Part shown: piece by piece, positions 456 to 10,850 of the stretch | Layout: every line of letters starts with the position of its first letter | How positions within the stretch are numbered: position 1 is the stretch's first letter | Source of the DNA: Myxococcota bacterium | GTDB taxonomy: Bacteria > Myxococcota > JACRCW01 | NCBI GenBank assembly: GCA_040752415.1 | Contig: JBFMGU010000320.1 | Coordinates: forward strand, 1 to 11,252 | DNA length: 11,252 nt | Reading direction: 5' to 3' | Made by a program: the position numbers and the translations under genes | The notes under the pieces: model-generated | Database searches by the model: none | Seen by the model: the letters and a program-made list of their open reading frames with translations, nothing else | Told to the model about the DNA's origin: nothing

Positions 456-1538
456 ATGCGGACGCTTTCCGCGGCAATCCTGGTCTTCCTGGCGGCATGC
501 ACCAACAGCACGCAGGAAGGTGAATCGGCCAGCAAGCAACCCTCGACCAACGTGTCCCTGCAGCCGCCCGCCGCGGGACGGGGATTCCAGTACACCACGG
601 GTGAGTTCGAGGTGGCGCCCGGCCTGGACCTGCAGCAGTGCTTCTTCTTCCAGGTGCCCGGCAACGCGGGCGAGGAGATCTTCGTCAACCGGATCGAGGT
701 GGCGCAGAACGAGGGCACCCATCACATGAACATCTTCCGGGTGCGCACCATCACCCCCGGCCCCAATGGCCTGGGACCCGAGGGCGGCCTGGTGCAGCGC
801 TCGGAGAATGGGCTCGGCGCGTGCTTCGATGATTCAAACTGGGCGGACTGGCCGTTGGTCATCAACTCCCAGACGGGCGGCTACATCGAGTGGAACCTGC
901 CCGGTGGCGTGGCCCACAAGTTCACCGGCGGCGAGTGGATCATGCTGCAGTCGCACTACGTCAACGCCGCAACGCAGGAGACGCCGGGCAAGGGAAACGT
1001 CTTCGTGAATTTCCACTTCGTGCCGCGCACGGAGGTCCAGCACGAGGTGGGAACGCTGTTCGCGTCCAAGCAGTCCATCCGCATCTGCCAGCACGACCAG
1101 CGGTCCGTCTACCATGGCACCTGCCAGATTCCGTCGGACCAGCCGGTCCACATCATTGGCGCCAATGGCCACTTCCACAGTCGTGGCACGCGGTTCGAGA
1201 TGTACGCGTGGGACGGCGTGAGTCCCTCGCCACCCGCCGACAGCGAGCGCTTCTACGTGTCCGAGGACTGGAAGGACCCGCCCATGCTGCGGAGCCCCGA
1301 GCTGGACCATGTGGTCCCCGCCGGTGGCGGCATCTGGTACACGTGTGAATACCAGTGGCGGGAACCCACCGACGGAATCACCTGCGACAAGCTCAACGAG
1401 GAAGACACCAAGGAGCTGGGCACTCCGCCGGAGGCCTATGACTGCTGCTACACCTTTGGCGGGCCGGTGGATTGGGCGGAGCACTGCAACGTGTTCGCGT
1501 ACTACTACCCGGCGAGCAACTACGTTCACTGCTACTGA
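456..1538 (+). CDS. Predicted lipoprotein with copper type II ascorbate-dependent monooxygenase (PHM/DBH-like) N- and C-terminal domains, 360 aa
   Basis: ATG at 456 is preceded by GAGGAG (443-448). Signal peptide with lipobox MRTLSAAILVFLAA-C15. Copper-ligand motifs are THHMNIF (H89,H90), LQSHYVN (H167), GHFHSRG (H239,H241) and AEHCNVF (H343 at the EMC position). The ORF-track start at 240 is probably over-extended. Confidence 0.8.
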   Translation: MRTLSAAILVFLAACTNSTQEGESASKQPSTNVSLQPPAAGRGFQYTTGEFEVAPGLDLQQCFFFQVPGNAGEEIFVNRIEVAQNEGTHHMNIFRVRTITPGPNGLGPEGGLVQRSENGLGACFDDSNWADWPLVINSQTGGYIEWNLPGGVAHKFTGGEWIMLQSHYVNAATQETPGKGNVFVNFHFVPRTEVQHEVGTLFASKQSIRICQHDQRSVYHGTCQIPSDQPVHIIGANGHFHSRGTRFEMYAWDGVSPSPPADSERFYVSEDWKDPPMLRSPELDHVVPAGGGIWYTCEYQWREPTDGITCDKLNEEDTKELGTPPEAYDCCYTFGGPVDWAEHCNVFAYYYPASNYVHCY

Positions 1539-1560
1539 GCCAGCGCCCCCCGACGTCACC

Positions 1561-1596
1561 CGCCCATGGCCACCGCCGTGGCGACGGAAACCAGGA
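1561..1596. repeat. 36-bp direct repeat, copy 1 (34/36 identical to 6348-6383)
   Basis: cgcccatggccaccgccgtggcgacggaaaccagga versus cgccaatggccaccgccgtggcgacggaaaacagga; exact 25-bp core 1566-1590 = 6353-6377. Confidence 0.9.
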
Positions 1597-1603
1597 CGGC
1601 CCT

Positions 1604-3559
1604 TCAGCCGGCTCCTGACCCCGGCGTCACGGCCAGCGGCGTGACCGACGCGCGACGATCCTGCTGGAACAAGAGGCCGGTCAGCCGCGCCTCATCCAGG
1701 AACCCCACCACCTCCCCGCCCTTCCCCACCACCAGCAGCTCGCGCACCTGGGAACGCAGGAGGCGCTCGGCGGCCACGCGCACCGTGTCCCCCGGCGTCA
1801 CGGTCACGGCCGGCTGCATCACGTCCGCGGCCACCACCACGTCGGCATGGCCGTGTTGGGAGGCCAGCACCCGCAGGGTATCCGCGGTCACCATCCCGCG
1901 CAGGATGCCCGCGTCGTCGTAGATGGGGAACACGTCCTGCCACAGCGTGTCCCCCATGCGGCCCAACATGTCCTCCGCCGGCGTCGAGAGCCGGAAGGAG
2001 ACCGCGTTCTTGCGGACCGTCATCAACGGTTCAACCGTCAGCGTGTCCAACACGCCAGACGGATGCTCCGGGCCCGCACCGCGCACCGTGCTCAGTTGCT
2101 CGTGGTAGAGGCTGGTCCTGCGCAGCGCGACGAAGACGATCCCCAGGGCCAGCATCAGCGGGACCATGAGGTCGTAGTTGCCCGCCATCTCGCACACCAG
2201 CACCAGCGCGCTGAGCGGCACGTGCGCCACGCCGCCGTAGAACGCTCCCATTCCCACCAGCGCAAAAGCTCCCGCATCAATCCGGGCATCACCGGAGACC
2301 AGCTGCAGGGCGCGACCGAACGCCCCGCCAAAGAGCCCGCCAATGACCAGCGACGGCGCAAAGTCCCCGGCGCTGCCGCCGGAGCCGATGGTGACCGCGG
2401 AGGCGAGGATCTTCCCGGCCACCATCAGGCACAGCAATCCCACCGCGGTCCAGCCCGTCGACAGCCACGGCGCTCCGCTGATGGCCGCCTGCACGGCGCC
2501 GTAGCCGCTCCCCAGGATTCCCAGGCCGCTTCCGGGCTCGTCGACCTGGGGGCCCAGCACCATCAGCAGCGGCGCCATCACCAGGCCCAGGAGCAACGCC
2601 CCCGCGCCGGGCTGGACCCAGGCCGGGAGGCCGGAGCGCGTGCTGGCGCGACGCACGCCCTCCAGCGTCCGCACGAACACGTGAGCCAGGAACGCAATGC
2701 TCACCGCCAGCAGCGCGTAGTACGGGAGGTGCGCGGGGATGAACGCAAAGCGCGGCGCATGGGCAAACAGCGTGGACTCGCCGTAGACCGAGATGACCAC
2801 GGAGTAGGAGACCACGCTGGCGAGAATGGCGGGGACCAGCGCTTCCTGCTCGAACCCGTCGCGGTAGAGCACTTCCACGGCCAGCAGCGCGGCGCCCAGC
2901 GGCGTGCGGAAGACCGCGGAGATTCCCGCCGCCATCCCGGCCACCAGGAGGATGCGACGCTCCCGCGGGGTCACCGCCAGCACGCGCCCCACCGTCGAGC
3001 CGATGGCCGCGCCGATAAGCATGGTGGGCCCCTCCCGTCCGCCCGAGCCTCCCGTCCCCAGCGTCACCAACGACGCCAGCGGCTTGATGGCCAGCACCCT
3101 GGGATGCACCACCCCACCCGCGTGATGGAACGCCGCAATGGCCGCGTCCGCGCCGCCGCCTCGCGTCTCCGGGGCCAGGCGCACCAGGAGCCCGCAGGCC
3201 AGGCCGCCCAGGAGCATCACCACCGGCAGGAGCCACGGGCGGAACACCAGGTCTTCCACCGCCGAGGTGATCTGCTCGCCATGCGCGCGCAGCGGCTTGT
3301 ACCCGACGAGGATCTCCAGGAACACCCGCTGGCCGTACTCCAGCGCCGCGAAGAAGGTCGCCCCGACCACGCCGGCCACCAGCCCCACCACAGCGGCGTG
3401 CATCAGGGTCTTGCCGACGAGACGGAGGTCCACCGGGGCGGAGTCGTCCATGAGCAGCAGCAGGAGCCTCCGGTTCCGTGACCGCCACCACGAGACAAGC
3501 GCCGCCACCGCCGCCAGCGCGCCGCGGTGCCACGTCCCGAGTCGTTCTTCCCATCTCAT
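1604..3559 (-). CDS. CLC-family (EriC-like) chloride channel/transporter with C-terminal CBS domain pair; start uncertain (ATG 3559, ATG 3598 or TTG 3607)
   Basis: Motifs GGSGGREGP (gating Glu), FRTPLGA, GGSAGDFAP and SLY, with many hydrophobic helices. The C-terminus is CBS-like (VEPLMT...VFPIYDDAGILRGMVT...AADVMQPAVTVTPGDTV...LLVVGKGGEVVGFL). Confidence 0.92.
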   Translation of the reverse strand: MRWEERLGTWHRGALAAVAALVSWWRSRNRRLLLLLMDDSAPVDLRLVGKTLMHAAVVGLVAGVVGATFFAALEYGQRVFLEILVGYKPLRAHGEQITSAVEDLVFRPWLLPVVMLLGGLACGLLVRLAPETRGGGADAAIAAFHHAGGVVHPRVLAIKPLASLVTLGTGGSGGREGPTMLIGAAIGSTVGRVLAVTPRERRILLVAGMAAGISAVFRTPLGAALLAVEVLYRDGFEQEALVPAILASVVSYSVVISVYGESTLFAHAPRFAFIPAHLPYYALLAVSIAFLAHVFVRTLEGVRRASTRSGLPAWVQPGAGALLLGLVMAPLLMVLGPQVDEPGSGLGILGSGYGAVQAAISGAPWLSTGWTAVGLLCLMVAGKILASAVTIGSGGSAGDFAPSLVIGGLFGGAFGRALQLVSGDARIDAGAFALVGMGAFYGGVAHVPLSALVLVCEMAGNYDLMVPLMLALGIVFVALRRTSLYHEQLSTVRGAGPEHPSGVLDTLTVEPLMTVRKNAVSFRLSTPAEDMLGRMGDTLWQDVFPIYDDAGILRGMVTADTLRVLASQHGHADVVVAADVMQPAVTVTPGDTVRVAAERLLRSQVRELLVVGKGGEVVGFLDEARLTGLLFQQDRRASVTPLAVTPGSGAG

Positions 3560-3640
3560 CGGCTGAACCGCGTCCGCCCCAGGTCGCCCTGCCGTCATGA
3601 CGTGCAACGCGGGCGGGCTTAGTGACGGTGCCCTGACCTG

Positions 3641-4771
3641 TCAACCAGGACTGACCAGCCGGTCATCCCCGAGGTGGCGACGTGCCCCTGCGTGGTGACG
3701 TCGTGTGGTCCTCCCCGCGCAACCGCTCGGCGTTGGCGGTGGTCTCTCCGCGTATGTCACGCGCGGTGACGTCGGAGATGTTGGCCAGGTGATTGTGGCA
3801 ACCCGGCTTGGCGCGAGCGAGGCCTTCTCTTCGGCGCCCACGTCGGGACCGGGACCAAGCTGCGCCATCGCGCCGACGAAGGCCACGTAGAGCGCCAGCA
3901 GCAGCCATCCCCGACGACGTCCCAACACCCCGGTGGACGGAGGATAGGAGATCACCACCATCAGGGCGCCAAATGCCAACGCCACGCCCATCCGCGCCAA
4001 CGCCACCTCGGGCGGGTGGATGGTGGCCGCCACGCCGACGATGAACAGGTTGTTGAAGATGTTGCTCCCCAGCACCGTGCCCAGCCCCACCTCGTCATGT
4101 CCGCGCCATCGGCTCAGCACGGTGGTGGCCAGCTCCGGCACGGACGTGCCCACCGAGACGATGATGGCGCCAATGACAAAGGGCTCCAGCCCCCACCACA
4201 ACGCGATTCCCGTCGCGCCGCTCACCACCAGGCGCCCCGCCGCAAACAGCAGCACCAGGCCCGCCAGCCCCCGCGCCAGCGCGCGAAGACCGTGACTGCG
4301 CGCCAGCACATCCACCCTCTTGTCGGCGCCACGACGTGCGTCCCGCACCGTGACCCCCAACCACGCACCAAACATGCCCATCATCAGCAGGCCGTCCAGG
4401 CGGGACAGGCGTCCGTCGACGGCGAGGATGGCGGTGAGGACCGGCGCCAGGAGCGCCACGGGGAAATCACGACGCATGGAGCCGGTGGCACAACGGATGG
4501 GCCCCAGCGTCAACGCCAGCCCCAGGATGAGCCCGATGTTGACGACGTTGCTGCCCAGCGAGTCGCCCAGCGCGATGTGCGGCTCTCCGTCCCACGCCGC
4601 GTTGATAGCCACGGAAAGCTCCGGCGCGGACGTGGCGAAGGCCGCAAACGTGGCAGCCACCACGCCGGCGGAGATGCGCAACCAGCGTCCCAGGGCCACG
4701 GTGGCCCCCACAAACAACTCACCTCCGAGCGCCGCGAGGGCGAGACCGGCGAGGAGAAGGAGCACGTCCAT
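3641..4771 (-). CDS. Calcium/sodium:cation antiporter (CaCA superfamily, YrbG-like)
   Basis: Two alpha-repeats: ATSAPEL...GSNVVN and GTSVPEL...GSNIFN. About 10 TM segments. GAGGAG lies upstream on the minus strand (4785-4790), and the start is 17 bp after the nhaP stop. Confidence 0.92.
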   Translation of the reverse strand: MDVLLLLAGLALAALGGELFVGATVALGRWLRISAGVVAATFAAFATSAPELSVAINAAWDGEPHIALGDSLGSNVVNIGLILGLALTLGPIRCATGSMRRDFPVALLAPVLTAILAVDGRLSRLDGLLMMGMFGAWLGVTVRDARRGADKRVDVLARSHGLRALARGLAGLVLLFAAGRLVVSGATGIALWWGLEPFVIGAIIVSVGTSVPELATTVLSRWRGHDEVGLGTVLGSNIFNNLFIVGVAATIHPPEVALARMGVALAFGALMVVISYPPSTGVLGRRRGWLLLALYVAFVGAMAQLGPGPDVGAEEKASLAPSRVATITWPTSPTSPRVTYAERPPPTPSGCAGRTTRRHHAGARRHLGDDRLVSPG

Positions 4772-4788
4772 GCGGACACCCCCGCTCC

Positions 4789-6408
4789 TCAGCCGCCAGC
4801 CGCGCGCGCATCGGGCGGGGCCGGCGCCGGTGCGGAAGCCGTGGGGGCGGGAGCCGGCGCGTCCTCCAGCGAGGTGAGCCGGGCGTCAATGTCGGCCAGC
4901 AGCGAATCCAGCGCTTCGGATCCCACCACGCCCTTCTGGGCGGCCTGCAGCGCGGCGTCGCGCTCCGCCACCAGCACGCGACGACGGGCCGCACGTTCCT
5001 CCTCGTGACGGATCTCCGCGCGCTCCAGGTGCAGGCTCTTGAGCACCGCGTCCGCCTGCTCCACCTGGCGCCGGTATTCCGCCTCCAATCCGTCCAGCAC
5101 CGCGGAGGGCGCGGCATGCTCCCGACGCATCCGCTCCACCTCCTCGAGACCGGCTCCCGCGGCCTTCAGTCGCCCGCGCTCCAGCTCGTAACGCTGCTGC
5201 TCGTCGGAGCGGACACCCACGATCTTCAGGCGGCGCAGCAGGGGCGCCATGGTCAGTCCCTGCAACAGGATGGACAGCAGCACCACGCCAAAGGTCATGT
5301 TCACCAGCAGCACGCGGTGCGGGAAGTCCTGCGGCAGGCCCAGCACCAGCACCATGGACAACGCCCCGCGCAGGCCACTCCACACCACCACCGTCGACCA
5401 CGACCAGGGCACCCGCTCACTGGTGCGCTGCAGCAGCGCCGTCACAACGAACACCACCAGCGCGCGCCCCGCCATCACCGCCACCCACGCAATCACGATG
5501 GGCAGCCACGAGGCGAGGAGCTGGTCGACGTGGATCTCGAAGCCGATGAGCAGGAACACCACCGAGTTCAGCGCAAACGCGAGGTACTCCCAGAACGTCT
5601 CCACGGCCACGCGCGTGGTGGGGCTCATGCCGGTGCGCGCCGCGTAGTTGCCGCACAACATGCCCGCGCCCACCGCCGCCATCACGCCGGAGACGTGGAA
5701 GCGCTCCGCCAACACGAAGGAGCCGTAGGCGGCCACCATGGTGAGCGTCAGCTCGATCATGGCGTCGTCGATGTTGCGGATGATGTGGGAAGCGGCCAGC
5801 CCCACCGCCACGCCCACCAGCGCGCCCAGACCGGCCACGCGGATGAAGTCCACGACGGCGGAGCCGAGCGAGATGCCCCCGCCCGCCATGGCGCCGAGGA
5901 TGATCGTGAACACCACCACGCCGGTGCCGTCGTTGAGCAGGCTCTCTCCTTCCACCATGACCGCGAGCCGCTTGGGAGCGCCAAGGCTCTTGAACAGGCC
6001 CACCACCGCAATCGGGTCGGTGGCGGCGATCAGCGCGGCGAACACCAGGCCGTGCATGAAGGTGAACCCGGTGACGAACGCCAGCGCGTTGGCTGCCGGC
6101 ACCAGGATGGCCGCCGTGGCCAGGATGGCGACGATGAGCCCGGGAATCGCCAGCGCGTGGATGCTGGTCTTCTCCTTCCAGAACTTCGCGGCGTCGAGGT
6201 GGAACGCCGCCTCGAAGATCAACCCGGGCAGGATGACGGCGAAGAGGAGCTCCTTGGTGAGGTGCGGCGGCTCGAAGGCCTTGACCGTGCCCAGCGCCAG
6301 CCCCGCGAGCACCAACGCCACCGTGTAGGGCAGCTTCAGCCACCGCGCGCCAATGGCCACCGCCGTGGCGACGGAAAACAGGATCACGAAGAGGAATTCA
6401 GCGTGCAT
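4789..6408 (-). CDS. Na+/H+ antiporter, CPA1 family (NhaP/NhaG/YjcE-like), 539 aa
   Basis: ATG at 6408 with GGAGGT RBS (6414-6419). Motifs LPGLIFEAA, AATDPIAV, EGESLLNDG, HVSGVMA and GLRGA, followed by a charged cytoplasmic C-tail. The ORF-track extension to 6720 is probably spurious. Confidence 0.95.
   Translation of the reverse strand: MHAEFLFVILFSVATAVAIGARWLKLPYTVALVLAGLALGTVKAFEPPHLTKELLFAVILPGLIFEAAFHLDAAKFWKEKTSIHALAIPGLIVAILATAAILVPAANALAFVTGFTFMHGLVFAALIAATDPIAVVGLFKSLGAPKRLAVMVEGESLLNDGTGVVVFTIILGAMAGGGISLGSAVVDFIRVAGLGALVGVAVGLAASHIIRNIDDAMIELTLTMVAAYGSFVLAERFHVSGVMAAVGAGMLCGNYAARTGMSPTTRVAVETFWEYLAFALNSVVFLLIGFEIHVDQLLASWLPIVIAWVAVMAGRALVVFVVTALLQRTSERVPWSWSTVVVWSGLRGALSMVLVLGLPQDFPHRVLLVNMTFGVVLLSILLQGLTMAPLLRRLKIVGVRSDEQQRYELERGRLKAAGAGLEEVERMRREHAAPSAVLDGLEAEYRRQVEQADAVLKSLHLERAEIRHEEERAARRRVLVAERDAALQAAQKGVVGSEALDSLLADIDARLTSLEDAPAPAPTASAPAPAPPDARAAGG
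6348..6383. repeat. 36-bp direct repeat, copy 2 (inside the 5' end of the CPA1 antiporter gene)
   Basis: Matches 1561-1596 at 34/36 positions and encodes LFSVATAVAIG on the minus strand. Confidence 0.9.
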
Positions 6409-6440
6409 CGTCCACCTCCCGGCACGGGGGCGGGATGACG
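6409..6440 (-). promoter_or_regulatory. Putative RBS-sequestering hairpin of the antiporter operon
   Basis: On the minus strand, CGTC-A-TCCCG (6440-6431) can pair with CGGGA-GGTG-GACG (6421-6409), which covers the GGAGG Shine-Dalgarno immediately before the ATG. Confidence 0.45.
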
Positions 6441-6535
6441 GTGCGCGCGCCCGCGCGGAGTGCGCGGAGCAGGTTGATGAGATGGCGCCGTCCCAAGAAG
6501 GACCCCCAGCGGTCGCCGCCGCAGCGACGAGACCC

Positions 6536-6595
6536 GGGGGCGGCCCGACCCGCCGGGATACCTGCGGCGGCGGAATGGCCACCACACCCTTGGCT
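6536..6595 (-). ncRNA. Putative nhaA-I motif / Li+-I riboswitch aptamer
   Basis: Minus strand reads AAGGGTG-TGGTGGCCATTCCGCCGC-CGCAGG-TATCCCGGCG-GGTCGGGCCGCC-CC. The GGGUG, CAGG and GGUCGGGCCGCC blocks match my recollection of the nhaA-I consensus. GGGUG can pair with CGCCC, and GUGGUGG/CCGCCGC forms an internal hairpin. It lies in the 5' leader of a Na+/H+ antiporter gene. No covariance model was run. Confidence 0.65.
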
Positions 6596-6614
6596 CTGCA
6601 ACGAGAGCGGACGC

Positions 6615-6644
6615 CACGTAACCGGCGCGCCTTGCACGGGTCAA
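6615..6644 (-). promoter_or_regulatory. Possible sigma70-type promoter for the antiporter operon
   Basis: TTGACC (6644-6639), 17-18 nt spacer, then TTACGT/TACGTG (6621-6615). The implied TSS near 6608 lies just upstream of the putative riboswitch. Confidence 0.4.
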
Positions 6645-6912
6645 ATGCGTGCCGTGGCGCTGGCCCGTGCCGCCGCCCGGTGCCGGCCCGCACCACGTCC
6701 GCGCCTCCGCCCCGCACCATGATGGAGGACTCCCCGCAACCGCCTCGCTAGACCCTGGGGCCCACCCGCACTGGGGCGCGCATGCTCGAACGGCCGCGGC
6801 CGCGTGTCTCCGGACCTGCGCTTCACCGCCGCGAATGAGCAGGGCCGGCGGGCTGGCGGAGGGAACGGATTCTGCGTCGCGCCGCGGGTGGCGCAGGAAT
6901 GGGAGGACACGG

Positions 6913-9633
6913 ATGTCCGAGCTCATGCGAGATGGCTGGCACGCGCTGGACTCGCAAACCGTGCTGCACCGCCTGGCCGTGGAGCCCGCGCAGGGCCTGT
7001 CCGAGAGCGAGGTTGCGCTCCGACGACAACGCCACGGTCTCAACACACTCAAGCCCAGGCGGCCACGCCCCGCGCTGCTGCGCTTCCTGTCCCAGTTCCA
7101 TCAGCCGCTCATCTACATCCTGCTGGCGGCCACGGTGATCACCGCGGCGCTTCGCGAGTGGGTCGACGCCAGCGTCATCCTGGCCGTGGTGGTGCTCAAT
7201 GCCGTGGTGGGCTTCGTGCAGGAGTCCAAGGCGCTGCACGCCATTGCCGCGCTGGCGCGGACGCTGGTCTCCGAGGCCACCGTCATCCGTGACGGCAAGC
7301 GCCGCCGCGTCTCCGCCGCCGAGCTGGTGCCGGGGGACGTGGTGGTCCTGCAGTCCGGAGACAAGGTCCCGGCGGACCTCCGCCTCCTCACCACCCGCGA
7401 CCTGGAGGTCGACGAGTCCACGCTCACCGGAGAATCCCAGCCCGTACCCAAGCAGGCCGACATCACCCTGCCCCCCGACACGCTGCTCGCCGAGCGGCTG
7501 AACACCGCGTACGCCTCCACGAACGCCACCCGTGGGCAAGCGCTGGGCGTGGTGACCGCAACGGGCGACCGCACCGAAGTGGGACGCATCTCCGAGCTGA
7601 TGGCCAGCGCCGAGCAGGTGGCCACGCCGCTGACGCGCAAGATCCATCACTTCAGCCACCTCCTGCTCACCGCCATCCTCGCCCTGGCCCTGGCCACCTT
7701 CATCCTCGGCGTCTGGCGCGGAGAGTCGGCCTTCCACATGTTCATGGCCGCCGTGGCCCTCATGGTGGGCGCCATCCCGGAGGGACTGCCCGCCGCCATC
7801 ACCATCATGCTCGCGTTGGGCGTCTCCCGCATGGCCCATCGCCGCGCCGTGATCCGCAAGCTCCCGGCGGTGGAGACCTTGGGAAGCACCAACGTGATCT
7901 GCTCCGACAAAACCGGCACGCTGACCGAGAACCGCATGACGGTGACGCGCGTGCTCGCCGGCGGGGAGGTTGTGGAGGTGCCGGGCGCCGGGTACGCGGC
8001 CACGTCGTGGGAGGCCGCCAGCCGTCCCGCCCTGCGCGAGTGTCTCCGCGCTGGCCTGCTGTGCAACGACAGCCGCGTGGTCGAGCGCGAGGGTCACTGG
8101 CGCACGGAAGGAGACCCCACCGAGGGAGCCCTGCTGCTCGCCGCGTCCGCCGCCTGCCTGGACCTCGCGCTCGAGGAGCAACGGCATCCACGCCTGGACA
8201 CCATCCCCTTCGAGTCCAGCCACCAGTACATGGCCACGCTGCACGCTCCCGCGGGCGAAGGCCCAGCCGTGGTCTACCTGAAGGGTTCGGTGGAAGCCGT
8301 GCTCGCGCGCTGCGACCAGGTACTCGACGCCGCGGGAGCGACCATCCCCATCGACGCCAACGCCATCCACGGTGCCGCGGAGCGCATGGCCTCCGACGGA
8401 CTGCGGGTGCTCGCCCTGGCCCGCACCACCCTGCCCCCGGGACGTCGGGTGCTGAAGCCAGGTGAAGTGGCGCGCGGACTTACGTTCCTGGGGCTGCAGG
8501 GCATGCTGGACCCGCCGCGCGACGAGGCCCGCGTCGCGGTGCGCAAGTGTCGGAACGCCGGCATCGACGTCAAGATGATCACCGGTGATCACGCGCTGAC
8601 GGCGCGGGTGATTGCCGAGAAGCTGGGGCTGGGACCCGTGGGACGGAGCGGGCGGCCCGTGGCGCTGACCGGCCGGGAGCTGGACACGTTGGGCGAGGAG
8701 GAGCTCCAGCTCGCCGCGGAACAGACCACCGTCTTTGCGCGCGTCACGCCGGAACAGAAGCTGCGGCTGGTCAGGGCGCTGCAGACCCGCGGCCACGTGG
8801 TGGCCATGACCGGCGACGGCGTCAACGACGGCCCCGCGCTCAGGCAGGCCAACATCGGCATTGCCATGGGCATCACCGGCACGGACGTGGCCAAGGATGC
8901 GGCCGACATGGTGCTCATCGACGACAACTTCGCCTCCATCGAGGCGGCGGTGGAGGAAGGCCGCGGCGTCTTCGACAACCTCACGAAGTTCATCGTCTGG
9001 ACGCTGCCCACCAATCTGGGGGAGGCGCTCATCGTGCTGGCCTCGGTGGTGCTGGGGACCACCCTGCCGGTGCTGCCGGTGCAGATCCTGTGGATCAACA
9101 TGACCACCGCGGTGCTGCTGGGCCTGACCCTGGCCTTCGAGCCCGCCGAGCCCGACGTCATGGAGCGCCCGCCCCGCCCACCCGACGAGCCCATCCTGAC
9201 CCATGACCTCATCATGCGGACGCTCTTCGTGGGGAGCCTCATGCTGGTGGCGGGCATGGGACTGTTCGAGCTGGAGCTGGTGCGCGGCGCCTCGGAGGCG
9301 CAGGCCCGCACGGCCACCGTCAACAGCGTGGTGATGATGGAGCTGTTCTACCTCTTCAACTGTCGCTCCCTGGTGAAGCCCATGCGCGCGGTGGGCTGGG
9401 GGAGCAATCCGTGGGTGTTCGTGGGCTGCGGCGCCATGCTCCTCGTCCAGCTCCTGTTCACGTATTCCCCGGTGATGAACCGCCTGTTCAGCTCGGCGCC
9501 CATGCCGTTCGAGAGCTGGCTCCTCATTGTCCTGGCGGGAGTTGCCGTCCTGTTGCTGGTGGGCTTGGAGAAGAGCATCCGCCTGCGGCATGGCATGGGA
9601 GGGCCGCAGCGCGCGGTGGGTTCGGCCACCTGA
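6913..9633 (+). CDS. Cation-transporting P-type ATPase, P2A-like (CtpF/Pma1-type subgroup), 906 aa
   Basis: ATG at 6913 with GGAGGA RBS (6902-6907). Motifs LTGES, AIPEGLP, CSDKTGT (phospho-Asp codon 7906-7908), GDPTE, YLKGS, DPPR, MITGD, GDGVNDGPAL, TLPTNLGE and QILWINMTT. Confidence 0.96.
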   Translation: MSELMRDGWHALDSQTVLHRLAVEPAQGLSESEVALRRQRHGLNTLKPRRPRPALLRFLSQFHQPLIYILLAATVITAALREWVDASVILAVVVLNAVVGFVQESKALHAIAALARTLVSEATVIRDGKRRRVSAAELVPGDVVVLQSGDKVPADLRLLTTRDLEVDESTLTGESQPVPKQADITLPPDTLLAERLNTAYASTNATRGQALGVVTATGDRTEVGRISELMASAEQVATPLTRKIHHFSHLLLTAILALALATFILGVWRGESAFHMFMAAVALMVGAIPEGLPAAITIMLALGVSRMAHRRAVIRKLPAVETLGSTNVICSDKTGTLTENRMTVTRVLAGGEVVEVPGAGYAATSWEAASRPALRECLRAGLLCNDSRVVEREGHWRTEGDPTEGALLLAASAACLDLALEEQRHPRLDTIPFESSHQYMATLHAPAGEGPAVVYLKGSVEAVLARCDQVLDAAGATIPIDANAIHGAAERMASDGLRVLALARTTLPPGRRVLKPGEVARGLTFLGLQGMLDPPRDEARVAVRKCRNAGIDVKMITGDHALTARVIAEKLGLGPVGRSGRPVALTGRELDTLGEEELQLAAEQTTVFARVTPEQKLRLVRALQTRGHVVAMTGDGVNDGPALRQANIGIAMGITGTDVAKDAADMVLIDDNFASIEAAVEEGRGVFDNLTKFIVWTLPTNLGEALIVLASVVLGTTLPVLPVQILWINMTTAVLLGLTLAFEPAEPDVMERPPRPPDEPILTHDLIMRTLFVGSLMLVAGMGLFELELVRGASEAQARTATVNSVVMMELFYLFNCRSLVKPMRAVGWGSNPWVFVGCGAMLLVQLLFTYSPVMNRLFSSAPMPFESWLLIVLAGVAVLLLVGLEKSIRLRHGMGGPQRAVGSAT

Positions 9634-9698
9634 GTGGCGGCCAAGTGGCGGCAGGGGGTGAGACCGTCCCCAGAGCCGCGGCGCCGGTTGCGGGGCAG

Positions 9699-9815
9699 GG
9701 TCGGAGAGGGCCCGCCAACGGGTCGGAGTTGGCCCGCAGGCGGTCGGAGTTGGCCCGCAGGCGGTCGGAGTTGGCCCGTAGGCGGTCGGAGTTGGCCTTC
9801 GGGCGGTCGGAGTTG
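9699..9815. repeat. 21-bp tandem repeat GGTCGGAGTTGGCCCGCAGGC: 4 full units, 1 partial and 1 degenerate
   Basis: Units start at 9721, 9742, 9763 and 9784, with a partial unit at 9805-9815 and a degenerate 22-bp unit at 9699. Confidence 0.95.
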
Positions 9816-9832
9816 TGATCCTGCTCACGCAC

Positions 9833-9853
9833 CCGACCCGCCGGAGGGGTCGG
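9833..9853. terminator. GC-rich hairpin just 3' of the hypothetical gene; possible terminator or RNA-stability element
   Basis: CCGACCC (9833-9839) and GGGTCGG (9847-9853) form a 7-bp stem with a 7-nt loop, 11 nt beyond the stop codon. There is no U-tract. Confidence 0.3.
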
Positions 9854-9864
9854 AGGCGGTGCGC

Positions 9865-10725
9865 TCAGGCGTCGACCGGCTCGGGGGTCCCCGCGGCCTT
9901 CTTGGCGCCGCCCTTGGGCTTGAGGAAGTAGCTGCTGGAGGCGATGGGCTGCAGGAGCGGGACGTTGGGGTCGTCCTGGCGGGTGGCCCCAAACAGCGAG
10001 CGCAGCGCCGTCATGTGCGAGAGCACCCGGCCGTCCTGCTCATCCAGCTGCGCCTGCGTCACCGGTCCGGACACGCCGGCTCCGCTGGCCTTTCGCGCTG
10101 CGGCCTCCACCTCGTTGGCCAGCGCCGCGGCGGCCGTGAAGCGCTCGGCGGTCACCCGCGACGCCGCCAGGCGCCGACCCTGCACCGCGCCGGAGCTGAG
10201 CCACTGCAGTCCCAGCGCGCTGAGCTGCTTGAGGGATGCCACCAGGCCGTCGGTGTCCGGCGCGGTGCCGTGCGCGGTTTCCACGGCCGCCTGCGCGGTG
10301 TTGTCGCGAGCCGCGTTGCTCAACATGGCGTAGAGCGCGCGTCGCTCCGCCCTGCCCTGCAGCACCTTCTCCTCGGCGGCGGTGGCGTCCACCTCGCGCT
10401 GGTCGCTGACCACCTCGGCGCCGGCCCGACGGGCGCGGTTCCGCTGGTCCAGCTCCACCACGTCCTTCCAGAACACCCGCAGCTGCGCCGTGGAGAAACC
10501 CATCTGCTGCAGCTGTTCCGGCGTGGCCTGCGCGCAGAATTGCGCCACCTGGCCGCCCCAGCGGATGGCGTCGGTGAGGATCTTGCCGCTGCTGATGAGT
10601 CTGCCCATCTCCACCAGCTCCGCGGACGTGAGCGCCACGCTGAAGAGCTCGATCTCCTCGGGCGTGGCGGTCCCGACGAGAGCGGAAACGCTCTGCAGCG
10701 TGAAGGTGGCATTGGTGGTCGTCAT
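9865..10725 (-). CDS. Hypothetical, predicted all-alpha-helical protein (286 aa)
   Basis: ATG at 10725 with AAGGGGG RBS 5 nt upstream. Codons are GC3-rich and the Ala/Leu/Glu-rich composition looks natural, with amphipathic helices and a basic low-complexity C-tail. No catalytic motif was recognised. Confidence 0.8.
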   Translation of the reverse strand: MTTTNATFTLQSVSALVGTATPEEIELFSVALTSAELVEMGRLISSGKILTDAIRWGGQVAQFCAQATPEQLQQMGFSTAQLRVFWKDVVELDQRNRARRAGAEVVSDQREVDATAAEEKVLQGRAERRALYAMLSNAARDNTAQAAVETAHGTAPDTDGLVASLKQLSALGLQWLSSGAVQGRRLAASRVTAERFTAAAALANEVEAAARKASGAGVSGPVTQAQLDEQDGRVLSHMTALRSLFGATRQDDPNVPLLQPIASSSYFLKPKGGAKKAAGTPEPVDA

Positions 10726-10850
10726 GGAAACCCCCTTGGGTAGGTTGTGGTGGCCGGCGATCTAGCGGGGGCGCTCAGGATTGGGAAGCGAGGTCCAGGA
10801 AGTTCCAGCGAAGCGCATAGTATGCGGGCCTATGGGGCCGACGCTCTCCC

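Follow-up and report, generated by a model that had tools for sequence, protein, structure and literature searches.

The window, by which we mean the whole 11,252-nucleotide (nt) stretch of Myxococcota DNA analyzed here, carries on its minus strand, at positions 6589 to 6536, what its sequence marks as very probably a functional-looking aptamer of the nhaA-I/Li+-I riboswitch class. It would act as an ion-triggered ON switch in the leader of an operon that encodes an NhaP-type antiporter and a YrbG-type CaCA exchanger, with a CLC gene as a possible third member. This reading is supported here by the family membership of the RNA, its position and strand, the identities of the downstream genes, an alternative pairing that competes with the aptamer when folding is predicted without ligand, and the repeated occurrence of the element before CPA and CaCA genes in the phylum.

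By analogy with validated members of the class, we infer the ligand, the ON polarity, and the passage of the signal over the 127-nt spacer to a ribosome-binding site (RBS) that is buried in a hairpin. Binding of Li+ (or, less well, Na+) would stabilize the two-hairpin fold, and the stabilized aptamer would retain the 3' strand of its second hairpin, P2, so that this strand could not pair instead with the downstream leader. Expression would then go ON, giving more cation exporters when the ion accumulates, and the signal may cross the spacer directly, via an upstream reading frame, or via transcription polarity. Both the ligand family of this riboswitch class and its link to Na+/H+ antiporters are already published, and the class is represented in Rfam; the window copy adds one member.

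The nhaA-I aptamer and its relation to known riboswitches

The initial annotation had proposed an nhaA-I motif and had named nhaA-I, nhaA-II, and DUF1646 as the models to be compared. We scanned all 11,252 nt of the window with cmscan against 4,227 Rfam models, and nhaA-I (RF03057) was the single match above its gathering threshold (6589-6536, minus strand, 46.4 bits versus 37, E value of 8.6e-7), spanning positions 1 to 55 of the 55 in the model. The same match was recovered at an E value of 2.0e-7 when the 11.0-Mb source assembly was searched (520 contigs, of which the window is contig 247). A permissive scan of positions 6300 to 6900, extended to an E value of 10, gave nothing below 2.6 apart from nhaA-I. 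Since no other match in this region was better than that, the DUF1646 (Na+-I) and nhaA-II models are considered unmatched; neither was among the matches up to an E value of 10, and both identities were rejected.

Read 5' to 3' on the minus strand, the aptamer begins with the GGGTG block (6589-6585), followed by P1, a predicted hairpin of 8 bp (6585-6578 paired with 6571-6564). CAGG (6564-6561) lies within the conserved joint GCAGGU on the 3' side of P1, and GGTCGGGCCGCC (6550-6539) contains the loop CGGGCC, which is closed by P2, a predicted hairpin of 6 bp with one bulged C (6554-6548 paired with 6541-6536). The specificity base, a U at 6548, stands directly 5' of the CGGGCC loop in the context GGGUCGGGCC. 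The blocks GGGUG, GCAGGU, and GGUCGGGCCGCC are all present and every invariant nucleotide of nhaA-I is intact, while P1 is perfectly paired and contains G-U and G-C pairs that differ from those of the paralogues. The element lies on the same strand as the NhaP/CPA1 gene, whose start is 127 nt farther downstream. All the landmarks listed in the initial annotation (GGGTG, a hairpin, CAGG, GGTCGGGCCGCC, a GTCGC/GCGAC-type hairpin, and GGAGG) were found where it had placed them.

The nhaA-I motif (RF03057) is known as the Li+-I riboswitch (Weinberg et al. 2017, PMC5737381; White et al. 2022, PMC9646797). With this class the window RNA shares the two-hairpin aptamer, GGGUG, GCAGGU, GGUCGGGCCGCC, and the U at the specificity position, as well as its place in the leader of a Na+(Li+)/H+ antiporter gene, the lack of a terminator, and the presence of several copies per genome. 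Unlike typical members, it has NhaP/CPA1 (PF00999) rather than NhaA as the first gene, followed by a CaCA gene and possibly a CLC gene, and the spacer to the start codon is 127 to 130 nt, compared with 23 to 65 nt in most relatives, and leads to an RBS hairpin that is predicted to form almost independently of the aptamer. The association table for 944 nhaA-I RNAs in PMC9646797 lists nhaA, “sodium/proton antiporter,” otsA, nhaD, and others; CaCA and CLC are not named in it, and its 130 unnamed “sodium/proton antiporter” cases may include NhaP/CPA1-type genes.

The Na+-II riboswitch of Desulfobulbus propionicus (PMC9646797) resembles the window RNA in overall fold, CGGGCC loop, deltaproteobacterial-type host, and sister copies next to osmotic-stress genes, but it has a C at the discriminator position, GGGGUC and GGAGGU in place of GGGUG and GCAGGU, and an intrinsic terminator as its platform. 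The Na+-I riboswitch (DUF1646 motif) is similar in its two-hairpin architecture and in the kinds of genes it regulates, according to the same source, but the window leader has no DUF1646 match even at an E value of ≤10. By every sequence-level comparison, the window element is thus a member of the nhaA-I/Li+-I family and falls outside Na+-II, Na+-I, and nhaA-II.

Copies and gene associations in the phylum

The source genome contains three nhaA-I matches over the cutoff. Besides the window copy, one is followed by an otsA-otsB fusion and a DUF389 gene and the other by a CPA2-type exchanger gene and then a histidine kinase gene. When 61 genomes of relatives (the source genome included) were searched, five had an nhaA-I match at an E value of ≤0.001, and in four of these the match was over the cutoff. 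In the same family, one other genome was searched, from the sister genus (G001), and five copies were found there, four of which cluster within 19 kb of a single contig. These copies precede, respectively, a gene for a DctM-type transporter; NhaA; a gene of no known family and then an Rnf/Nqr-type subunit gene; CaCA, directly; and a string of a small open reading frame (ORF), Usp, and NhaP. The stretch of contig C141 of this genome from 26596 to 45151 (L093 and L094) holds the four nhaA-I RNAs before the DctM-type gene, NhaA, the gene of no known family, and CaCA, together with a gene for an MscS-like channel, and it looks like a cation/osmotic-stress island.

For a wider view of the phylum we searched 401 genomes with a strict sequence pattern and obtained matches in 80, some of them accidents in coding regions; a reversed control pattern also matched occasionally. 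We assembled 70 leaders, 67 of which passed a filter on P1/P2 pairing; the other three, added manually, are the window and two copies validated with Rfam. All 10 of the leaders rechecked with Rfam passed the cutoff. The downstream genes of 60 of the 70 were scanned with Pfam, leaving aside seven with an existing annotation and three whose main frame was doubtful; given that the relatives are not independent, the resulting counts are descriptive rather than statistical. NhaA follows in 36 of the 60 leaders and a gene of no family in 11, followed by family-28 glycosyltransferases (five leaders) and PF00999 exchangers (two). CaCA, a family-4 glycosyltransferase, Usp, an Mrp/NuoL-like protein, a P-type ATPase, and a doubtful isochorismatase were found once each. 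The five leaders before family-28 glycosyltransferase genes (L220, L231, L236, L237, and L241) form a conserved subgroup with a distinctive P1 (GUGCGUCGCG...) and match the “glycosyl transferase” class of the published table.

CaCA genes are thus found under nhaA-I in three lineages of the phylum, within the operon in the window and directly after the RNA in G001 and G553. The initial annotation had called the extension of such control to a Ca2+/cation exchanger and a CLC protein an unusual association; this was overstated for CaCA, given the two other genomes with nhaA-I directly before it, and a CLC gene directly after the RNA was found in none of the 70 leaders. NhaP, CaCA, and CLC genes tend to lie close together without the riboswitch as well: CaCA lies directly upstream of an NhaP homologue in three loci, and CLC is nearby in loci representing three places. 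In the sister genus (L095; G001, contig C34, 3734-5722, minus strand), a CLC+CBS homologue of 29% identity lies immediately upstream of the nhaA-I RNA that precedes the small ORF, Usp, and NhaP, so that the CLC-NhaP neighborhood is kept in a changed order.

Outside the phylum, alphaproteobacterial nhaA-I was found in none of five genomes reached via the loci and in none of 26 genomes of one order, and the pattern matched three times in 206 genomes of one class.

Ion specificity and passage of the signal to the NhaP gene

According to PMC9646797, nhaA-I RNAs switch expression on with Li+ and bind Na+ about tenfold more weakly, and rare deltaproteobacterial variants, which have an intrinsic terminator and carry C where U is common, sense Na+. 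From the D. propionicus wild-type and C54U (M4) templates in its supplement, we located the discriminator base directly 5' of CGGGCC. The window has a U at this position, GGGUG and GCAGGU as in the Li+-I consensus, and no terminator-like site between 6400 and 6600. By sequence, then, the window RNA is of the Li+-I type, and we regard Li+ as the preferred ligand with somewhat better than even confidence.

The U is not proof of exclusivity for Li+, because the C54U change in the Na+ variant gave a response to Li+, Na+, and NH4+ alike in the experiments reported there. The RNA might therefore have the nhaA-I fold and yet respond physiologically to Na+ under salt or osmotic stress, in which case the operon would serve NaCl extrusion, with NhaP moving Na+, CaCA exchanging Na+ for Ca2+, and CLC moving Cl-. 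This alternative is appreciably less probable than the Li+ reading. Na+-sensing variants are known from Deltaproteobacteria (PMC9646797), and the nearest homologues of the window NhaP, at 62 to 63% identity, carry the labels Polyangium, Polyangiaceae, or “delta proteobacterium” (the closest being deltaproteobacterial or Polyangia). The copies in the source genome and the sister genus precede otsA-otsB, the Rnf/Nqr-type string, and DctM-type and Usp genes; those in the phylum precede genes for glycosyltransferases, Usp, Mrp, and a P-type ATPase; and the authors of PMC9646797 allow that Na+ might be what trehalose-linked members sense. NaCl would also account better than Li+ for a chloride transporter in the operon. 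Against this stand the sequence of the RNA itself, with a U rather than a C and GGGUG/GCAGGU rather than the GGGGUC/GGAGGU of the Na+-II example, the missing intrinsic terminator that marks the Na+-II group, and the roughly tenfold more Na+ than Li+ that tested U-type members required (PMC9646797).

Turning to the Li+-I aptamer and its connection with the genes, the start codon in the window lies 130 nt after GGUCGGGCCGCC, while most of the 70 related leaders have it at 23 to 65 nt. Directly 3' of the aptamer is a hairpin, UCGUCGC-UGCG-GCGGCGA (6530-6513, from reading and folding the sequence), and a small hairpin occupies the same place in most short leaders of the relatives. Its 3' part contains CUGCGGCGGC (6524-6515), whose 10 nt are perfectly complementary to 6571-6562, the 3' strand of P1 together with CAG. 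The minimum free energy (MFE) and centroid folds of the leader differ exactly in this alternative, and the pairing of CUGCGGCGGC with P1 is a possible way in which the aptamer could be disrupted. In the predicted ligand-free MFE fold, the 3' strand of P2, CCCCCGG, is paired with CUGGGGG (6509-6503) across the small hairpin, the same geometry by which related short leaders hide their Shine-Dalgarno (SD) sequence. The CUGGGGGU of the window sits where the paralogous otsA leader has its real SD, CUGGAGGU. Farther downstream, a stable hairpin predicted with ViennaRNA (6448-6401) covers both the RBS of NhaP, GGAGG (6419-6415), which ends six bases before the start codon, and the ATG itself (6408-6406). 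The anti-SD strand of this hairpin is about 90 nt away from the aptamer.

The simplest connection, and the one proposed by the initial annotation, is that the aptamer acts directly on the hairpin hiding GGAGG and AUG, as a translational ON switch without any relay. This hairpin is real and strong in the prediction, a segment GGGACGG (6493-6487) pairs with the anti-SD strand when the aptamer and an open RBS are both imposed, and the authors of PMC9646797 speculate that the RBS of the neighboring gene is the target of most members. As a control we computed the cost of opening the SD and start codon, with the aptamer forced or not, in 54 related short leaders. Forcing the aptamer cut this cost by a median of 3.9 kcal/mol, with a gain above 2 kcal/mol in 37 of the 54, at or below 2 in 17, and below 0 in seven. 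Given this median release, the calculation does detect the expected design. At the NhaP RBS of the window the gain was 1.4 kcal/mol with the full leader (14.9 without and 13.5 with the aptamer forced) and 1.9 in the short-leader calculation, and the RBS was paired with a probability of about 1 in both ensembles. The occluding stem proposed earlier is thus predicted as described, but thermodynamics does not support a direct occlusion switch, against which the distance of about 90 nt also counts, and we consider direct control possible but rather doubtful.

A relay through an upstream reading frame is a further possibility, which we put forward tentatively and hold to be slightly less probable still. 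The ORF list and the sequence give a candidate frame of 32 codons (6507-6398 including its SD-like site) with a UUG start (6496-6494) and a UGA stop (6400-6398). A GGGGG (6507-6503) stands six bases before the UUG, the UGA falls 8 nt inside the NhaP gene (AUGCACGCUGA), and the frame crosses the spacer and the RBS hairpin. The aptamer would gate GGGGG/UUG, and ribosomes translating the 32 codons would melt the NhaP hairpin, end next to its AUG, and reinitiate by coupling. These ribosomes may also cover a C-rich, G-poor tract in the frame (6492-6453) and so block Rho-dependent termination; the C-minus-G skew of the tract, up to 0.25, is at the 96.6th percentile of the window, which is weak support for a Rho entry site there.

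In favor of such a relay, the UUG is 42 nt after GGUCGGGCCGCC, within the 23- to 65-nt zone of genuine starts in most of the 70 leaders; CUGGGGGU has the SD place of the otsA leader and is paired with the 3' strand of P2 in the ligand-free MFE fold; and the stop overlaps the start region of NhaP. In three of the four long-spacer leaders with no intervening gene (the window, L221, and L008), an upstream frame ends at +1 to +8 of the main start, compared with an out-of-frame stop there in 11 of the 54 short leaders (post hoc, P roughly 0.03). The upstream start of L221 couples canonically to the aptamer (3.6 kcal/mol), while its main start does not (-2.2 kcal/mol). Moreover, the Li+-validated Azorhizobium caulinodans construct, read by hand from the supplement of PMC9646797, has GGAGA, 5 nt, and AUG right after the aptamer, opening a 28-codon frame whose UGA overlaps the AUG of nhaA; the terms uORF and leader peptide do not occur in the searched text of that paper. 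On the other side, a UUG with GGGGG is a weak initiation site, and the computed coupling of this start is -0.2 kcal/mol, or 0 to 3.0 depending on the RNA ends. Open frames are usual at 70% G+C, and 20% of ordinary starts have an out-of-frame stop nearby. Among the long leaders, L218 has no such overlap and the frame of L008 begins far from the aptamer, and the four leaders come from related genomes and were selected after the pattern had been seen.

In L221, on contig C145 of genome G468 (about 22438-23248), a 32-codon frame lies at the canonical distance after the nhaA-I RNA, and its TGA overlaps the GTG start codon of a gene for an Mrp/NuoL-like antiporter subunit.

Leader reading frames are known as relays, with mgtL in the Mg2+-sensing mgtA leader of Salmonella and tnaC, which works with Rho, as examples. 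As in those systems, a short frame in a long leader would decide downstream expression in the window, with a C-rich tract that could serve Rho; unlike them, the window frame is no more than a prediction, and it ends in a stop that overlaps the main start codon. The overlap suggests coupling rather than attenuation. A relay of this kind is not described for nhaA-I in the searched text of PMC9646797. Put more generally, long-leader Li+-I riboswitches, the window one included, may act not on the RBS of the transporter but on a short upstream frame that starts at the canonical place and stops on the real start, with the signal passed by translational coupling and possibly by shielding of a Rho site; we hold this model to be rather unlikely. 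The probability left beyond the relay and direct control falls to other mechanisms, including transcriptional polarity.

Several observations weigh against a functional ion switch of the NhaP operon as a whole. We compared 160 loci of NhaP homologues (80 from genomes and 80 from metagenomes, with homologues of at most 66% identity) and found no orthologous leader among them. Only one of the 160 (L056, the copy in G001) has the motif upstream of NhaP at all, about 1 kb away and behind two small genes; in the 80 metagenome loci, no copy was found upstream of NhaP. Two other matches arose in this comparison. In the metagenome locus L143 the motif lies downstream of the NhaP homologue, before a glycosyltransferase-like gene, and a loose match to the search expression in L077, on the opposite strand and inside or behind the gene, was taken as chance. 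The 206-nt leader of the window is no more stable than its shuffles (z score of -0.73), and the release at the NhaP RBS is smaller than the median for the 54 controls. The strand of the CLC gene and the lack of a predicted terminator are the only grounds for placing this gene under the same control. Finally, trehalose synthesis in the same genome and Nqr-like and DctM genes in the sister genus would be no less at home in a salt or osmotic regulon than in a defense against lithium.

The atypically long leader, the weak in silico coupling, and the missing orthologous leader would suit a match that is accidental or decayed and regulates nothing, but this reading is highly improbable given the E values in the window and in the 11-Mb genome, the three genome matches that all stand before ion- or osmo-related genes, the intact invariant nucleotides, the perfect P1 with G-U and G-C pairs unlike those of the paralogues, and the correct strand and place before a cation antiporter gene.

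The downstream genes and the possible significance of the CaCA link

Upstream of the aptamer by about 20 to 25 nt, a candidate promoter can be read from the sequence as TTGACC (6644-6639), 17 nt, and TTACGT (6621-6616) on the minus strand. These hexamers, noted in the initial annotation, are present, but a σ70 consensus scan of positions 1400 to 7000 returned no promoter-like site. Terminator-like sites beyond the level of shuffled sequence were found neither in 6400-6600 nor between the genes.

The first gene of the operon (4789-6408, minus strand) encodes an NhaP-type (CPA1) Na+/H+ antiporter of 539 amino acids with a coiled, charged C-terminal tail, which matches PF00999 with 228 bits and TIGR00831 (a_cpa1) with 282.3 against a cutoff of 279.6. 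Its start at ATG 6408 is sound, since the homologues align from residue 1. After a gap of 17 nt follows the gene for the YrbG-type CaCA exchanger (3641-4771, minus strand, 376 amino acids), with PF01699 (Na_Ca_ex) in two stretches and the GTSxPE signatures ATSAPEL and GTSVPEL. TIGR00367 (“calcium/sodium antiporter”; 182.2 versus 179.65) covers only residues 3 to 298, and the last ∼75 residues have neither homology nor the third-position G+C signal of coding sequence. This signal drops from about 0.9 to about 0.6 to 0.7 over roughly 3860 to 3560 and recovers only inside the CLC gene. The frame of CaCA is open to 3641, so that some 250 to 300 nt (3560-3860, minus strand) are without the signal, with a TTGACA-like hexamer at 3634-3629; the stretch could be a disordered tail, the result of a lost stop, or an internal promoter region. 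No terminator or promoter was predicted in the gap between CaCA and CLC, and a scan of 3400-3950 gave no Rfam match up to an E value of 10.

The CLC chloride channel/transporter with its C-terminal CBS domain (Voltage_CLC of Pfam, 279 bits) is encoded at 1604-3598 on the minus strand, with an uncertain start (ATG at 3598, 3559, or 3451), and no further gene follows on this strand until a convergent ORF is reached. It stays below all NCBIfam equivalog cutoffs and is assigned to CLC by Pfam only. In an alignment with StClC (1kpl), GSGIP is replaced by GGGAD (central Ser to Gly) and the inner proton Glu by Val, while the gating Glu (GREGP) and the central Tyr are kept. An identity as a ClcA/ClcB-type CLC was rejected, with the equivalog models failing and the anion-site Ser and the inner Glu lost. 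Of the NhaP-CaCA-CLC operon proposed in the initial annotation, the NhaP-CaCA part therefore stands as a tight pair, 17 nt apart, but CLC comes after the 250 to 300 nt without coding signal, and its membership of the transcription unit is plausible.

Divergently upstream, on the plus strand, lies a gene for a type-IIA-like P-type cation ATPase (6913-9633, probable start at 6913), which is below all NCBIfam equivalog cutoffs (the best, for PMR1-type Ca2+ ATPases, with 679 versus 798) and has an unexplained leader of about 270 nt; the Rfam scan of 6300-6900 found nothing meaningful in it. Elsewhere in the phylum, in a different genome (L252), an nhaA-I RNA directly precedes the gene for a P-type ATPase whose N-terminal domains are the same as those of the window ATPase. 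The ORFs at 240-1538 and 9634-10743 (both plus strand; 432 and 369 amino acids) have no Pfam match at an E value of ≤0.001.

The long leader, its aptamer-independent hairpin, and the frame overlapping the start suggest an expression platform that has not been described for the nhaA-I class, and this possible relay, together with the link to CaCA, is the part of most experimental interest. Li+ transport has reportedly been engineered into an archaeal exchanger. The Li+ capacity of the CaCA superfamily is a matter of debate, with the eukaryotic NCLX (Na+/Ca2+/Li+ exchanger) recently argued to be an H+/Ca2+ exchanger (PMC12571890). The function of YrbG-type CaCA proteins in bacteria is poorly defined, and a place behind an ion-sensing RNA is a hint of Na+ or Li+ transport. 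Given its recurrence under nhaA-I in three lineages of the phylum, this genomic arrangement nominates the YrbG-type CaCA proteins as candidate Li+- or Na+-coupled exporters.

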